From: Octopus vulgaris
Taxonomy: Eukaryota
Direction: 5' to 3'
DNA length: 64,000 bases
NCBI GenBank assembly: GCA_951406725.2
Contig: OX597820.1
Location: 6,510,001 to 6,574,000, forward strand
Shown: positions 21,174 to 50,771 of the stretch, one piece after another
Layout of the letters: the number at the start of each line of letters is the position of its first letter
Position numbering within the stretch: position 1 is the first letter of the stretch
Notes under the pieces: model-generated
Databases searched by the model: none
What the model was told of the DNA's origin: nothing
What the model saw: the letters and a program-made list of their open reading frames with translations, nothing else
Program-made: the position numbers and the translations under genes

Positions 21174-21991
21174 AAGATTAGATATTTATATATTTATTAT
21201 ATGACACAATAGCATTTGATTTGAGGAATATTTAGCTACAATGTTTTGCAAGTCGAGCGAATACGGAGATTGTTTCGCGCATTTAGTATATATGACAGAG
21301 AAATACATTTCAAGAATATTTAACTATTATTTTTAGTGAATCGAGCTAATACGATTTTCATCGGCCTCCATAAGTGCCATAAACCTCTTGTGTTATTCAC
21401 CAATTTTAGTATTTTGTAGGGAAAAATCTGTGTATTTAACATAAACATATTGCACTCATATTTACCGAAGTTATTCTGTTCCTGTAATTATTCTCCAGAT
21501 AGTTGCTAAGTATTCATCCTTCCAGCAAATTGTATTTATTTAATACAGTTGGTTGCACTGCACTGTATTAGCATTCCTACACACACACAAGCGCGCGCAC
21601 ATACATACATGGACGGAAACACGAACGCATACGAACACAAACACACACACACACACACATACAAATACGCACACAAACAAGTAATTCATTCATGACAACT
21701 ACAGAAAAATGGAACCCAAAAGGAAACCACAAAAACATGACAAAATGATATTGGAAAATGAAACGGAGCCGACGTGGATGAGAAGCCGCCACTCTGATGG
21801 TTATCTATGGAGCACGGGTACAATATAAATAACAGTTCTCGCCTGAAGATTGCAGTGTGCATGTATGTATGTATGTATGCCTGTGTATGCATACATGTTT
21901 GTTTATATGTTTATATATATATATATATATATATAATAGAAATATTAAAATTACTAAGTCTCTCTAAAGGAGATTACGGCAGCGTTACTGG

Positions 21992-22382
21992 AAATTAATA
22001 GTTATCGCCATACTTATATGGCAGTCTTATAAATATAAGACTAAAGCTGTCGCTGATTAGCTCCAAGAGGCCACCGCCTCAAGCTAGCTATTTGACACAC
22101 AACCTGCGTCCATTATAAACCTTCGAACAGGGACAGTCAGTAGCGACACCTGCTGGGTCTCACTACGCTGCATTGATAAAGGGCAAATACCCTGAAACAT
22201 GTCTGCAGCTGTCTGACTGGCAGGATGAAGCGGCTGACCTCCCCTCTTCGAAGGTTTATAATGGACGCAGGTTGTGTGTCAAATAGCTAGCTTGAGGCGG
22301 TGGCCTCTTGGAGCTAATCGGCGACAGCTTTAGTCTTATATTTATAAGACTGCCATATACGAATGGCGATAACTATTAATTT
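21992..22382. repeat. 136-bp inverted repeat with 119-nt spacer containing an HHR
   Basis: Arms 21992-22127 and 22247-22382 are nearly perfect reverse complements. Confidence 0.95.
22167..22209 (+). ncRNA. Type I hammerhead ribozyme with U3-A8 core
   Basis: gctgca TTGATAA aggg caaata ccct GAAAC AT GTC tgcagc. Stem I 6 bp, stem II 4 bp, palindromic ACATGT, GUC site. Confidence 0.8.
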
Positions 22383-22664
22383 ATATATATATATACTTAA
22401 GTATATATGCCTGTCTCTCGCTAGTGTTACAAACAAGAGTGCTTATACGCACCAAAATCCTTATAAGAAGTTATCTGGTGTTAATTATCGCAGTATTTTG
22501 TGTTCTAACACAATATCTACTTTTATGTGTGGATACATTATTACCTAAATAAATAAATGTATATATGGTGGTGCTATTAAGTTAGACATGGTCTGGGCCA
22601 ATAATGGTCGAAACCTATCAAAGTATCAAAGTATCAAAGTATATATATATATATATATATATAT

Positions 22665-22901
22665 ATCTTATAATTAAGGGCTAAAGAAGGTTATTCTAAA
22701 GCCAATACACTGATTTATCCACTTATAATCCACTTGTTACAGGAAAATTGAACTGAGAGCGGGCAACTAACCTTGAAATTTAAATTTTCTAAAGGTTAGT
22801 TGCCCGCTTTCAGTTCAATTTTCCTGTAACAAGTGGATTATAAGTGGATAAATCAGTGTATTGGCTTTAGAATAACCTTCTTTAGCCCTTAATTATAAGA
22901 T
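22665..22901. repeat. Near-perfect 110-bp-arm palindrome (foldback)
   Basis: Arms 22665-22774 and 22792-22901 with one mismatch and a 17-nt loop. Confidence 0.95.
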
Positions 22902-23002
22902 GTTTATACTTCAACCGTAAAGGTTTTTTCTAATATACTGCCACGCTTTTTGATGGAATCCTTTTCTGTAGAGAAAGGGACTTCATCCTATATTGTTAGT
23001 AG

Positions 23003-23066
<64 letters not shown>

Positions 23067-23084
23067 TGAATTCAATTATCATTG

Positions 23085-24992
23085 TATCTCTAAGAAAGGA
23101 GGCGCTAGCCATCGATTACATCAACATTGAGGAAACAGATGTACCAGCGTCCATACATGAAATGAACTCATGCTCCGCAACTGGCCCTGGTGGATTCCCA
23201 GCTATTCTTCTGAAGTCATGTAAGCAGGCTTTAGCGAAACCACTTCAGATTCTTTTCCTAAATTTCCTTGCAACAGGTAAACTTTCTAAAAAGATAAAAG
23301 AAGGCATGATATGCCCTATTCACAAAGGTGGAATCAGAGCAGAGGCCAAAAACTACAGGCCAATCTCTCTGACTTCACATATCATTAAAGTCATGGAACA
23401 CATCATCAGAAAAAAAGTTGATAATGTTCCTAGAAGAAAATGACCAACTGAACAATACGCAGCGTGGCTTCCGTCCAGGAAGAAGCTACCTCACGCAGCT
23501 CCTAGAGCACCTTGACTGGGTTTTGAAACATCTGCTTTTGAAACAGCAGCTTCACCTATCAGATATCATCGTTAGATACCTGACCTTGCAAAGAGATTTG
23601 GTATGGTAAATCATGGCATGATATGTCATAAGACAGAGACCATTGCTGGTAAACTGGAAGAGTGGCTTCATGATTCCCTTAAAGAGAGAAATCAGGCAAT
23701 TGCAGCCAATGTTAGCCTTTCTGACTAAACTCAAATCCTTAGTGGCGTCCCTCAAGAAACTGTTCTGGGGTCATTATTGTTCATAATGGCTCGTGTAGAC
23801 ATACCCACGGTAACTCGGACAGCCACTGTCACTAGCTATGCCAATAATACAAAATTATCACTGGCAGTAAAATATGAAAACGACGACGTAATCTTACAGA
23901 TTTCGATATACAGATGGACCGGAATAAACAACATGCAGTTTAATGTGGGAAAAGGCGGCGAGCTGGCAGAAACGTTAGCACACCGGGCGAAATGCGGAGC
24001 CGTATTTCGTCTGCCGTTACGTTCTGAGTTCAAATACCGCCTTTCATCCTTTCGGGGTCGATAAATTAAGTACCAGTTACGCACTGCGTTCGATGTACTC
24101 GACTTGATCTCTTTGTCTGTCCTTGTTTGTCCCCTCTATGTTTAGCCCCTTGTGGGTAATAAAGAAATAAATATGGGAACATTTCAAGCACCACTATCAA
24201 CTCGCGAATGCACTACAATCTGCATATACAGGACCCAAAGGCACTATAGTATACAGGACCCAAAGGCACAAGCAGTGAAAGACTTGGGGGATCAGAATGT
24301 GCAATGACGCATCATCTTATATGCACATTACCATGAAGGCAGCAAAAAGCATAGAACTGGTAGAATGCTTACTGAGGTCCTTCAAGACAAGAGACGAAGA
24401 AATAAACTGTGGAGAACCTTTGTTCTCAGCCGCCTAGACTACTATTTCCAGTTATGGTCATCACATAGTGTCAAACTAACAGCGCAGTTCGAAGCATTTC
24501 AACGCCATTACACTAAACGTTTGAAACAGAGCAGCTGATGAGCTACAAATATAGGCTGAGAAATCTGCAACTTTACTCCCTGGACCGAAGGCAAGAGATA
24601 AGCAATAATCTGCGAATGGAAAACTCTAGGTCTAGTACCTAATTTCGCCATTGCCTGTTATACAAATGCCAGAACTGGCCATTGTATTTTACCAAAAGTA
24701 CCATCCACTCCATCTAAATTCAGGACTAAGTACTGCAATTGTCTAGGGATCAAATGCCCAGTTCTTCAATGCCCCTGCCACAAAAAATTAAGAAATCTGC
24801 ATAAGGTGGAACAAGATGTCTGGAAAAAGGAACTAGACGTACTCTTCTCCACAACACCAGGTAAACCAACAGCTGGGACAAAGGCACATACAGGTGTGGG
24901 GGTGTGAAACACATCAGACTGAGGAGATCAGAAAGACAACGGTAATGCACCAGGAGGACTGCAGCCGCGTGGCTGAAACGAGTAAAAGAGTA
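23085..24992 (+). mobile_element. 5'-truncated, decayed CR1-like LINE (RT ORF2 and 3' tail)
   Basis: Motifs GPGGFPAILLK, NYRPISLTSHIIKVME, QRGFRPGRSYLTQLL, SGVPQETVLG, YANNTK and FNVGK. Frameshifted. Tail cagccgcgtggctgaaac. Confidence 0.9.
23952..24169 (+). mobile_element. tRNA-derived SINE, family C, nested in the LINE
   Basis: Head ggcggcgagctggcagaaacgttag...gagttcaaat. Probable TSD aatgtgggaa (23942) / aatatgggaa (24170). Confidence 0.88.
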
Positions 24993-26835: not shown

Positions 26836-28111
26836 AAAACTACGTTCGAAGATACTGTACTTGATATGGGCGGTAGTGCCTTGCCGGTCTATGGCCTACC
26901 TTCAACAAACCGGGAAGGCACAAACACTCTGTCTTCACATTTGCTGCGTGAGACATGTTTTAATGTTGACGAGCTTGCCGAGTACATAGCCGACAATGAG
27001 CCAAAGCTCCCTCCAGAACAGAAGATATTTTTCCTGAACGCTCCTGGGGGCACTGGGAAAACTTTTCTCAACAAATTAATATTGGCTGAGATTAGGCGAA
27101 CACAAGGCATTGCCCTAGCTGTGGCATCATCTGGAATTGCGGCTACTTTGTTGCCAGGCGGCAGGACAGCTCACTCCACTTTCAAGCTTCCGCTTGACTT
27201 AGCGAAGACTGAAACACCAACTTGCAACATCAGTAACAGCTCCGATCAGGCAGAAGTCTTCAGATGATGCAAGCTTATCGTTTGGGATGAATGCACGATG
27301 GCCCACAGAGGTGCTCTTGAGGCACTAGATAGATCTCTGAGAGACATCAAACACTCTTCAGCTCCCATGGGAGGCATAACACTTCTTCTTTCAGGGGACT
27401 TCCGACAAACACTTCCCGTTATTCCCAAAGGGACTAGAACTGATGCAGTAAGTGCGTGTCTTAAGTCATCCACATTGTGGCCACTGGTGAAGACTCTCAA
27501 ACTTCACACCAACATGCGTGCTCATATGCGACGTAATATCACATCAGCAGCATTTTCTCACACCCTCCTTGCACTTGGCGAAGGCAAAATACCAGGGGAT
27601 GAAAATGGTAATATTGCCATCGATTCCATTTGTACCATTGTTAAAACGCCTTCTGACCTCAGAGATGCAGTGTTCCCAGATCTACAAGCTAATTATCCTA
27701 ATATGGATTGGATTGGCCAAAGGGCTATTCTGGCCCCGAGGAATAAAACTGTTCACCATATTAATGATGAAATGCTAAAACTCATTCCTGGAGATGTCTA
27801 TGTATATAAGTCTATCGATACAACTCCTGATCCAGAGGACGTCATCAACTATCCAATAGAGGTACTCAATTCCTTTGAGCCCCCCGGACTACCACCACAC
27901 ATTCTCAAACTTAAAGTTGGTGCCCCTATAATGCTCATTAGAAATTTGGTTCCCCCAAAACAATGCAATGGCACACGTTTGATCGTTAAGTCCTTATCTC
28001 CCACCGTAAACTTATATCAATATTTGCCTGAATAATCATCATAATTCAGTGCAATCATTAACAGTACTTTCAAGCAATTCAGCCCCGAGCATCGCCGGGC
28101 AATTCTGCTAG
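26836..28111 (+). mobile_element. Helitron fragment: PIF1-family helicase remnant plus 3' terminus
   Basis: Helicase motifs followed by hairpin gccccgagcatcgccgggc (28082-28100) and CTAG|T at 28108-28112. Confidence 0.9.
26866..28035 (+). pseudogene. Helitron RepHel PIF1-like SF1 helicase domain, disrupted
   Basis: APGGTGKT, AVASSGIAATLLPGGRTAHS, WDECTM, GDFRQTLPV, LKVGAPIMLIRNL and CNGTRL. One in-frame TGA at 27265 separates the two listed ORFs. Truncated before the final helicase motifs. Confidence 0.92.
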
Positions 28112-28179
28112 TATATATATATATATATATATATATATTAATTGATAGGGAAGACACAGCGTACTGTGAGCTTTATTTA

Positions 28180-28286
28180 GTACGACGATCGTTTCGGCTT
28201 TCAACTGCACTGCTACCTGGTGAGTGAAGAACGATATAATGGAATCGAATACAATCCACATTGCAGAAGAAACCTCATCAGGTTAC
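28180..28286 (-). ncRNA. Type I hammerhead with long stem-loop II
   Basis: Minus strand: gtaac CTGATGA ggttt...aagcc GAAAC GATC GTC gtac. Palindromic ACGATCGT; stem I imperfect. Confidence 0.65.
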
Positions 28287-28317
28287 ATAATAATACGCTA
28301 AATGTAGCGTATTATAT

Positions 28318-28421
28318 CAGGTGATGAGTCTTCTTCTGTATTGTGAAGTACATTCGGTTCCATTGTATCGTTCCCCACCCACTAGGTAGGAATGCAGATG
28401 TGAGTCGAAAAGATTGTCCTG
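28318..28421 (+). ncRNA. Degenerate hammerhead (inverted partner of 28180-28286)
   Basis: cag GTGATGA gtctt...gagtc GAAA agatt GTC ctg, with C3G and stem III damage. Confidence 0.45.
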
Positions 28422-29879
28422 CTAAATAAAGTTTACAGTACACTCTGCCTTCCCTATCACTTATTTAAAATATAATAGACGTGTCCTTATTACACCTCGA
28501 AGTAGGAATCCTTCTCGACTAATTCTCGGATTTCGAAATCTGTATACCAATTAATGCAAGAATCCTAAAAAAAAAAGATTCCTAAGATTTCACTGGACAT
28601 TTTGTCACTAAAACACGATAACACTACTACTAACTAAACTAGCGTCAAACTGCTTATTATTATACCTACTACTACTACTGCTGCTGCTGCTGATGATGAT
28701 ATAGTGGTGGTAATACTGGTTTTGCTGCTGTTGTTGGTGGTGATGTTGAAGAATTCGGCGGTGATGATGAGGATGATTATGATGATCATGATGATAAAAC
28801 AAATAGAAAAGAAGAAGAAGAAGAAGACTTAAAGAGGACAAAAATGATGAGACAAGATGAGAGAAAAAAAGCAAAGCAAAGAAATGACAAAGTATTAAAA
28901 AACCGCAAAAATCAGAAGAATTTGACGAAAGAAGATGAAGAGGTTGTAATATCGTTTTGTGAATGTCATTTTATTCCATTCAACGCATTCTTCGTCTAAA
29001 TTTCCGTAAAGTCTGCTAATACTATTGATGTATTTCAAATCGCAATAATAATAATAATAATAAAGTAGAGATTAAATTGAAAATGGGAATTAGATGGAAA
29101 ATAATGAAAAAAAAAATAGAGACAATTTCAAGAAACTAAGAAGAAATTTAAACACGAAATTTGTTGAATTGAAAAACACCAGAGCAATAGAGGAATTAGG
29201 GGAAACATTTCTCAATTCCACTTTATGACCCATTCTACGTAATTATCCATTCTTCAAATTCCAATATTTGTTGATATTTCTTCAAAAAAAATCTCTTTCT
29301 CTTTTATAAACTTTCATCTCTCTAATGATAAAAAAAAGACAACCAAAAAATTCGCACTCAATTTTATTGCTTTTGTTTCTAATTTTCGGATATTTTCTTC
29401 ATATCTTTCTCATCAAGTTTTCTTTAAAATTATATTTCGATTTCTTTGTATTTTTTTTTTTTGTATTTTATATTTCGTATTCTTGGTAGAACAGTTTTTT
29501 TTTCTCTCTCAATTGAGATATTATTTAAACATTTTGGTTTATGTTTGCTCCGTTAAACACTGAAAATGGCCTCTTCATTTTCGCCTATTGTTTCTCCGTT
29601 AATCTCTTTGAGAGATCGGTCGCTTTATTGGCAAGCACAACAACAAACACACTGGCCAGCGAATGTATATACATACATGCATATATTCATACATACAAAC
29701 ATACACACAGGCACATACAGATGTGCATATATGCATACATACATACATACATACATACATACACGGAAACGAACATAAAGGCACGAATAAATAAACTCAG
29801 TCATGTGCTTATGTATATATATATATCTTTTGGTGATTATATGTGCGTGTAAGTGCTGTCTATGTAGGTATTGCACTAT

Positions 29880-31589: not shown

Positions 31590-32362
31590 TAAAAGACTGG
31601 AAATTTGGTATATCCTAAAAGTGGCGAGAAGTCTTTTCTGGAGAGAGTACTATTGGAAATTGAGAAATGTCTGCATCAGTCTCATGAAAAGGAGAGAGCA
31701 AATAAAGAAGCTTGGGTTATAGAAAATATCAAGTCAAACCCTGAAGCTTTCTTTAAGTTTGCCAAAGAAACAGCCTCAATACGCCACATGATAGGACTCC
31801 AAGTCCAGAAGATGGTTTCCTTACAGGAAACCCTATATGGATAAGTGAAATACTGAACGTGCAGATCATTACACCGCTGGGACACGGACAGGCGAACGAA
31901 CCAGCAGAATTATTTACCATTTTACCTGTAATCGAAGAGGCAAAAATTGAGTACATGAACATTGAAGGTGTAACACTCGCCATAGATGAAGTCGACACAA
32001 ACTCAGCTGCTGGCCCCGATAGATATCCAATGATCCTTCTCAAATCATGCAAGCGAGCCCTTGCAAAACCATTGCAGCTTCTTTTTCAGAGCTCCCTTGG
32101 AAGCGGTAAGCTCCCAGACAGACTGAAGGAAGGGATAATATGCCCTTTCTATAATGGAGGAATCAGAGCAGACGCTAAAAATTATAGGTGGAAAACTTGA
32201 AAGAGTGGCTGCATGACTTTCTAAAAGAAAGACGTCAGGCAGTGGTGCCAGTGAAGCCACCTCTACGGAAGCACAAATAGCAAGTGGAGTTCCACTATCT
32301 TGGGGCCACTGCTATTGACAGTGGTCCTCTCAGACAAGCTCTCAGCTGCTCAGATAGCCACA

Positions 32363-32402
<40 letters not shown>

Positions 32403-33390
32403 CGATGGGCTTCTTTCAGTTTCCGTCTACATAATCCACTCACAAGGCTTTGATCGACCCTATGCAGATGGCACAAAAGCCTCTCAGACAATACAAAATC
32501 CTGGAAATCTGCACGTCTACAACGGTCGTTGGATGCAATACAGAGGTGGACTAAGTACAACAAATCGCAGTTTAATGCAGGAAAATTCCAGACCCTCCGC
32601 TACCAGCACACAAAGCTAAACGACATGCAGACAGGATACACAGGCCCAGGAGAAACTGAAATCCTCGAATCAAAATCAGTGCATGACCTGGGCATTGACA
32701 TGAGCAATGATTCATCTTTCCAATTACATATTGCCAATTTGGTAATAAAATGCAGACGGCTGGCTCCTCTGAAATTTCAAAACGAGTGAAAAGGAGATAT
32801 TAATGATCCTTTGGAGAACATATTTCCTCAGCCGCTTGGACCACTGCTCCCAGCTATGGTCATCACACAATATAAAATTGACGGTGGAAATCGAAGCAAT
32901 CCAATGAAGCTACACTAAGAAAATCGTCTCGATGCAACATGGTAAAGACTTAAAGACTTAAAACTCTGCTCGTTGGAACGACGGCGGGAGAGATATGCAG
33001 TGATATACATCTGGAAAATCCTACAAGGCCATGTACCAAACTTTGGCATTGAAAGTTATTCAAACTGCAGAACGGGGCGCCACTGCCTAGTGCCAAGAAT
33101 CCCAGCATCGCCATCAAAATACAGAACCAGATACTGCAACAGCTTGGACTTCAAGGTCTTACAGCTCTTCAATATCCTTCCAAAATGCTTGAGAGACCTG
33201 CGTGGTGTGGATGTGTCTGTAAAACAACACTGTCAAGTGTTCCAGATGAGCAGGAAACACAGATGAGGGTAGCGGCAGCAAACTCCCTTATTGACCAAAT
33301 GCCACATATCAGAGGAGGTTTCAAATAATGGTGTATCTCATTCAACAGTGGTGCTCCAGTATGACCGCAGCTTTGCAGCTGAAACATTAA
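31590..33390 (+). mobile_element. Decayed CR1-like LINE, internally deleted and interrupted
   Basis: IKSNPEAFFKFAK, AAGPDRYPMILLK, YADGTK, FNAGKFQ and LERRRERYAVIYIWKIL. A microsatellite and family B SINE piece sit at ~32362-32460. Tail cagctttgcagctgaaac. Confidence 0.9.
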
Positions 33391-49839: not shown

Positions 49840-50636
49840 TAAAACTTAGAACTTACATAAAACTTAGATATGTTTCGACCAGAGATTGGTCCAGGCCATG
49901 TCTAACTTAATAGCACCACCTGATAGGATTATTCGAATCCTGTTTAAGTCAAGTTTTGTTCAAGTAGTGAGTTCTTGTTGGGTGAGTTGTACCCAGTTTT
50001 GTTCAAGTAGTGAGTTCTTGTTGGGTGAGTTGTATCCAATTATGGGTGGCTTATCTGGTATTCTTTGAAGGAATCTATCCAGACTCTGTTTGAAGTTGAT
50101 GGGATCCTTTTCCTCTTTGATCTCCCCAGGGACAATGTTAAATAGGGCAGGGCCTGTTGAGGAAAAGAAATTATGTTGCAGTGTACGTGTATGTTGTGAT
50201 CTTGAATTTGGCAGGGGACGTAGTGGTCCAAGTCTTGGATGAACCTTGAAGCTAATGTTTAGGTCGTTTGGGCAAAGTTGGCGGTATATTTTCCACATCG
50301 TACAAATGATGTACCGCTCACGGCGACGCTGGAGGGAGTAAAGTTTCAAGGCTTTAAGGCGATCCCAATAATCGAGAGCAGCCATGCTTTCAATTTGTTT
50401 AGTGAGAGCCCTCTGGGGTGACTCAATTCTGGAGATGTTTTGTCTTGTGTGAGGAAACCACAGTGGGCAGCAGTATTCAAGGTGTGGCCGTACAAAGGAG
50501 GAAAAAAGTGGTATGATGACACCTTGTTCTCTGGACCGGAAAGTTCTTAAGATCCAGGAACTCATCCTACGAGCTATATCGACCTTCTTGTTGATGTGTG
50601 CACTCCAACTGAGATCGTCATCAACAATTACACCCA
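49840..50636 (-). mobile_element. CR1-like LINE 3' portion (second family)
   Basis: Open frame GVIVDDDLSWSAHI..VRPHLEYCCPLW..LYSLQRRRERY..GPALFN. A ~41-bp tandem duplication lies near 49952-50034. Confidence 0.92.
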
Positions 50637-50728
50637 TATATATATATATAAGCATGCACCACCGCACACCATATACATGCACACGTATAGAAGCATATTT
50701 ACACAAATACACGCATCCATTTGAATAT

Positions 50729-50771
<43 letters not shown>

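Follow-up and report, generated by a model that had tools for sequence, protein, structure and literature searches.

In a 64,000-nt window of Octopus vulgaris DNA (the whole stretch analysed here), we identify a type I hammerhead motif at 22167..22209 on the plus strand, whose core, read directly from the sequence, is UUGAUAA. The reading we favour, and hold to be probable, is that this is a type I hammerhead in which U3-A8 is common across an abundant family, that the family is likely a Penelope-type terminal repeat, and that its RNA is predicted to cut in dimers. It adds one more case to what is known, the U3-A8 swap in nature having been reported already in 2011, with several natural examples of the covariation (PMC3088659), and in 2014, when a U3-A8 descriptor returned ~1,300 matches in Schistosoma Penelope-like elements (Cervera and de la Pena 2014; PMC4209133). 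The novelty implied for U3-A8 in an earlier note on this DNA is removed by the natural cases in those two papers. What the element would add is a large family, found in nature, that combines a swapped 3-8 pair with a canonical scaffold bearing tertiary-contact letters.

The features of the locus are listed below with their strand and basis.

21975..21991, minus strand: tail of 17 nt, present on the left arm and not on the right (family sequence beyond the right arm's stop)
21992..22127, minus strand: left arm, which repeats the element's 3' part in inverted orientation and lacks the ribozyme (133/136 match to the right arm)
22118..22166, plus strand: imperfect rod, 5' strand, extending stem I (fold prediction; contigs through about 22121-22256)
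22167-22172 / 22204-22209, plus strand: hammerhead stem I, 6 Watson-Crick pairs (sequence)
22173-22179, plus strand: core U3 U4 G5 A6 U7 A8 A9 (sequence)
22180-22183 / 22190-22193, plus strand: stem II, 4 bp, with loop CAAAUA (sequence)
22194-22197, plus strand: GAAA (sequence)
22197-22202, plus strand: helix III, the 6-nt palindrome ACAUGU (sequence)
22201-22203, plus strand: GUC site (sequence)
22210..22256, plus strand: imperfect rod, 3' strand (fold prediction); U22210 is the predicted partner of loop 2's last A, by analogy with PMC2632901
22247..22382, plus strand: right arm, the family's natural 3' continuation of the ribozyme (contigs in run X1 over 22190-22307 and in run X2 over 22184-22297)
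22382..22395, no strand: (TA)7 run in which the right arm ends, the likely insertion target (sequence)

Sequence and predicted fold of the hammerhead

Stems I and II, the UUGAUAA core and the GUC site, all described in the earlier note, are confirmed. A descriptor comprising the core, a stem II of at least 4 bp and a stem I of at least 5 bp, applied to both strands, finds one U3-A8 motif in the window, on the plus strand, and none in 300 block shuffles by two-letter tokens; with any Y3/R8 core allowed, the same descriptor matches once in 300 block shuffles. The motif carries the letters of a type I hammerhead, namely a Watson-Crick 3-8 pair (here U3-A8), U4 G5 A6, A9, G12 A13 A14, A15.1-U16.1 and H17, and its RNA is predicted to be cut after C22203. 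Two features were absent from the earlier description: helix III is palindromic, and pair 10.1-11.1 is A-U instead of the usual G-C, a second departure from the common core.

Whether the arms are included or not, fold prediction assigns stems I and II pair probabilities of 0.84-1.0. For a monomer to close helix III would cost a predicted 5.7 kcal/mol, and the predicted energy of the intermolecular duplex is -4.6 kcal/mol. These model energies fit the dimer model (PMC4209133; PMC6765202).

No hammerhead family is returned by Rfam at E ≤10 on 22100-22280, and for the whole window the Rfam matches listed (150 of 316) are all to microRNA models on microsatellites or fold-backs, every one below its gathering score. 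The claim that standard searches miss this family therefore holds for Rfam. Two pattern matches elsewhere are rejected as chance: one in a metagenome contig (L001) lies inside a gene, presumably pyrF, and has no stem I, and one in a prokaryote genome (L002) lies inside a gene that we take to encode a Nudix hydrolase. Searches by CUGANGA only or by Rfam would miss part of the animal hammerheads, as was pointed out in 2014.

U3-A8 across the repeat family

Part of the stretch is contained in 20 of 24 listed public runs, from four coded organisms. Four of the 24 (three coded organisms) were aligned to 22120-22420 at 80% likeness with a 5% variant threshold, yielding 2288, 2200, 1723 and 153 aligned contigs (~6,400 in total). 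One of them, run X10, may consist of RNA reads. The four runs contain at most 38% of the stretch's words, with no listed piece spanning the stretch, and therefore perhaps represent DNA of relatives rather than the window's own genome.

Among 40 of the 41 variant rows listed, none falls at 22173 (U3) or 22178 (A8). The neighbouring positions 22170, 22177 and 22180 do have variant rows, so the region of 22173 and 22178 is covered by contigs. The per-run T>C and A>G tallies, made by hand, are wholly explained by those 40 rows, so the 41st cannot be a return to C3 or G8; that row is T>A in runs X6 and X10 and could fall in the core. Among relatives within 80% likeness, C3 and G8 each lie below 5% in all four runs, relatives below that likeness being invisible to the alignment together with any route from C3-G8 among them. 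U3-A8 is therefore a state of the family and not the decay of a single copy, and the comparison of paralogues proposed in the earlier note returns U3/A8 as the family consensus.

Summed depth at the core in run X1 is ~350,000, compared with 40-230 in any one of the eight longest contigs, which suggests hundreds to thousands of family copies, though depth is no copy number. Judged from the contig sequences, the U3-A8 core is the usual state of an abundant repeat family.

A loose end behind 22319 is common to all four runs, which suggests a second subfamily whose 3' part differs.

Variation within the motif

Variant rows occupy 0 of 12 core sites and 10 of 31 other sites in 22167-22209, with 40 of 41 rows listed (Fisher p 0.023, indicative only, as the sites are not independent). 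Position 7 shows T>C at 8-12%, two loop II letters vary at 27-36%, and position 10.1 shows A>G at 6-11%, with G-U pairing in stem II preserved. The terminal pair of stem I is often lost, C22209A (30-65%) outnumbering G22167T (5-32%). At the centre of helix III, A>G is accompanied by T>C at matched shares (14.1/14.0, 2.1/2.0, 12.5/12.0 and 20.6/19.4% in the four runs), and A>T by T>A likewise (5.0/4.9, 8.0/8.3, 9.9/9.9 and 10.0/11.0%). Both double changes, AT to GC and AT to TA, preserve the palindrome; their linkage is read from matched depth and not from single contigs.

These shares support the view that variation in the family matches the pattern of a maintained hammerhead, and the avoidance of the core, together with a palindrome kept in two ways, points to selection acting after the swap became fixed. 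The proposal that the double change is compensatory rather than decay gains support at the family level, from the shared U3/A8 and from this variation pattern. The paired changes in helix III also constitute natural support for the dimer model.

Hammerhead scaffold and proposed loop contacts

A 6-bp helix I, a 4-bp helix II and a short palindromic helix III are canonical features of Schistosoma-type metazoan hammerheads, and all are present here; PMC4209133 assigns 6-bp/4-bp helices to canonical metazoan type I hammerheads, unlike its minimal ones. Loop 2, CAAAUA, is identical to that of the Schistosoma crystal hammerhead, whose contact brings together loop 2, through its 3' A, and loop 1, through its 5' U and an extrahelical pyrimidine (PMC2632901). 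The matching letters in the stretch are A22189 (the last A of loop 2), U22210 and C22166; A22189 and U22210 are without a variant row among 40 of the 41 listed, and 22166 varies only C>T. Internal loop 1, with UAC 22164-22166 as its predicted 5' side, is predicted to be 1 by 3, smaller than the 4 by 4 loop of Schistosoma. By analogy, we infer that contacts between loop 2 (A22189) and internal loop 1 (U22210 and the pyrimidine at 22166) would form and offset the weaker U3-A8 core. Perreault et al. 2011 report the same covariation and propose that tertiary contacts offset variant hammerhead cores; the available text of that paper describes no high-copy animal repeat family (PMC3088659).

Two known groups share different parts of this architecture. 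The hammerheads of Cercyon Penelope-like elements in Schistosoma mansoni have the same U3-A8 core, a palindromic helix III and a dimer model, and are ~1,300 mostly single copies, with one example of identical UUGAUAA letters (PMC4209133). Typically, their helix I is short and their helix II often long, with an extra base behind A9 and a G10.1-C11.1 pair, whereas the stretch's hammerhead has 6-bp/4-bp helices, a long stem I extension and Schistosoma-type loop letters. It thus departs from the 2014 minimal-hammerhead consensus in its A10.1-U11.1 pair and in having no extra base after A9, and shares with it the palindromic helix III, 6 nt long and preserved by the two double changes; on the energy model, it would work like the minimal type in needing a dimer. 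The Schistosoma crystal type and the non-LTR retrozymes share with it the 6-bp helix I, the 4-bp helix II, the CAAAUA loop 2, UAC at the 5' side of internal loop 1 and a short palindromic helix III (PMC2632901; PMC7229834; 10.64898/2026.07.22.740005). Compared with these, as described in the text available from the same sources, the stretch has U3-A8 instead of C3-G8, a loop 1 predicted to be 1 by 3 instead of 4 by 4, and no tandem arrangement in view.

We did not find U3-A8 on a canonical loop-contact scaffold in the literature searched, and supplements and papers beyond it may already list one. Among the papers listed for hammerheads in octopus, none is relevant, and a paper on Octopus vulgaris repeats mentions Penelope-like elements but never uses the words hammerhead or ribozyme in its main text (PMC13282606).

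Inverted arms and the inner rod

The two arms delimit an element of 391 bp, and a repeat search lengthens them to 149 nt at 95%. The reverse complement of the left-hand tail equals, by eye, the first 17 letters of a loose end behind 22382 in run X2, this evidence being one loose-end row (7 contigs, median length 15, agreement 0.68). The start of the rod's 5' strand and the end of the left arm share 22118-22127. Letters private to this copy, at 22161 and 22246, break rod pairs that are kept by 92-100% of the family, and the family letter G at 22161 restores its pair. The arms share a letter at 13 of 16 family-variable sites, including the minority letter A22359 (T in 84-98%), and loose ends before 22121 and 22132 reveal other upstream sequence in some relatives.

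On this comparison, the inner imperfect rod 22118-22256 (~140 nt) is a family trait, and the near-perfect outer arms were probably produced when this copy inserted. The long viroid-like rod drawn in the earlier note accordingly stands for its inner part, which belongs to the family, and probably not for the outer arms.

Runs X1 and X2 (two coded organisms) hold the same small fold-back joint inside the ribozyme, at 22175-22215; its inserted letters contain the U3-A8 core once more when read on the opposite strand.

Origin of the element

In Penelope-like insertions, the repeat has an inverted 5'-truncated copy next to it, one end bears a tail and the targets are microsatellites (PMC8557442), and the locus displays each of these: an inverted 5'-truncated copy, a one-sided tail (from one loose-end row) and a (TA)n/AT-rich target. 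The hammerhead lies ~200 nt from the 3' end, as described for such insertions (PMC8557442; PMC11167929). The stretch differs from them in containing no gene and in a traceable tail of 17 nt against the 30-40 bp described. No reverse transcriptase or GIY-YIG gene is found linked to this copy, the nearby frames being short, and the one nearby frame scanned (21685-21825) has no Pfam match. Against a Penelope origin, helices of these sizes are closer to those of canonical retrozyme-type hammerheads than to those of the minimal Penelope ones.

With a Penelope-type terminal repeat as the best explanation, the following course may be proposed. U3-A8 would stand in for the C3-G8 pair, and two copies would pair through the palindromic helix III before the RNA is cut after C22203. 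The perfect outer arms would have arisen once, at insertion, when a Penelope-type enzyme began at two start sites close together, extended the two nicked strands of the target and so left a tail on one arm; a purified Penelope-type protein does cut and extend both target strands, two nearby start sites bounding the tail (PMC11167929). The two cDNAs may have joined through the rod's own 10-nt complementary base (22118-22127 / 22247-22256). This copy would be a solo, gene-less dead end that cuts poorly unless paired with a second copy. In that protein system, hammerhead cleavage needed the protein and was not needed for insertion in vitro (PMC11167929). A bolder version, in which a fully active U3-A8, A10.1-U11.1 family still under selection is rescued by Schistosoma-type loop contacts, the conserved 140-nt rod routinely seeds fold-back insertions, and many copies, as long hairpins tipped by a ribozyme, are transcribed and spread as a unit, we put forward only tentatively and think unlikely. 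The origin of inverted repeats in Penelope insertions has been called open (PMC8557442), and if the rod seeds the inversion, their formation would have a simple explanation that can be tested.

The nearest rival, which we give a modest chance, takes the element for a lone non-LTR retrozyme monomer. Retrozymes of this type are tandem repeats of ~300 nt that carry no gene and whose RNA is cut into monomers and circularised. Because they have been proposed to derive from Penelope terminal repeats, this rival differs from a Penelope-type terminal repeat only in family organisation. The canonical 6-bp/4-bp helices and Schistosoma-type loops agree with it, as do a family unit of at least 280 nt, within the 150-450 bp range, and the commonness of solo monomers (10.64898/2026.07.22.740005). 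Yet there is no tandem array at the locus and no second family copy within the 64-kb window, no head-to-tail joint of the whole unit is listed for the contigs, themselves too short to span one, and an inverted copy with a one-sided tail is a signature of Penelope insertion (PMC8557442). Less probable still is a passive spread, in which a U3-A8 core with little or no activity became fixed in a single master copy and was multiplied by hitchhiking, the family having no further need of the ribozyme. Shared descent alone would yield a common core, A10.1-U11.1 is a second departure, and hammerhead mutants still insert in vitro (PMC11167929), but the variants avoid the core and preserve the helix III palindrome in two separate ways, and PMC3088659, citing its ref. 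32, describes in vitro activity of U3-A8 ribozymes.

The geometry of the element brings in two further readings. At 391 bp with long near-perfect arms, it resembles a miniature inverted-repeat DNA transposon that captured a hammerhead between true terminal repeats of 136 bp, and an arm depth of ~0.6-2.8 times the core depth would allow two arms per copy, copies being not countable from depth. We consider this highly improbable, given the uneven arm ends with a 17-nt tail on one side, the other sequence that some relatives have just upstream of 22121, and two ends at which no target duplication is seen by eye. A viroid-type reading would make the locus the DNA trace of a rod-like RNA that has the ribozyme at its tip and replicates at the RNA level. 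The 411-nt strand indeed folds as a single rod (-299 kcal/mol, z -32), but only because a DNA inverted repeat gives such a fold trivially. The descriptor finds a single motif in the window, on the plus strand, rather than motifs in both polarities; the family is abundant genomic DNA, present in DNA-type runs; and two patterns give 0 matches in viral contigs. We reject the viroid reading on these grounds and leave it a negligible chance. A Penelope-type terminal repeat remains the reading that we prefer.

Surroundings in the window

The window is AT-rich, microsatellite-rich and animal-like, with LINE-like and PIF1-helicase remnants. Three sets of broken frames (23006-24907, 31757-33266 and about 49960-50730) are, we assume, remnants of LINE reverse transcriptases; the five frames scanned have no Pfam match, and 49963-50730 has no PDB match either. 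Just before a microsatellite, a lone CUGAAGA at 21843-21849 is possibly a truncated hammerhead, with no GAAA or stems after it. A fold-back at 22658-22908, 275 bp from the element, starts at (TA)n and has 117-nt arms (114/117 match) around a 17-nt spacer; the descriptor finds no hammerhead in it.

A second, older head-to-head inverted repeat (76%) occupies 28128-28474. Its minus arm is hammerhead-like, with a standard C3-G8 core at 28281-28275, GAAA at 28195, a weak stem I, a stem II whose 5-bp base encloses a long insert and an 8-nt palindromic helix III, followed by AATAAA and (TA)n; the predicted fold does not favour the hammerhead. A decayed copy makes up the plus arm. From its sequence layout, this repeat looks like another Penelope-type inverted insertion. 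Coordinates 26836-28035 contain a PIF1-like helicase remnant in two frames (Pfam PF05970, PF21530), likely derived from a Helitron.
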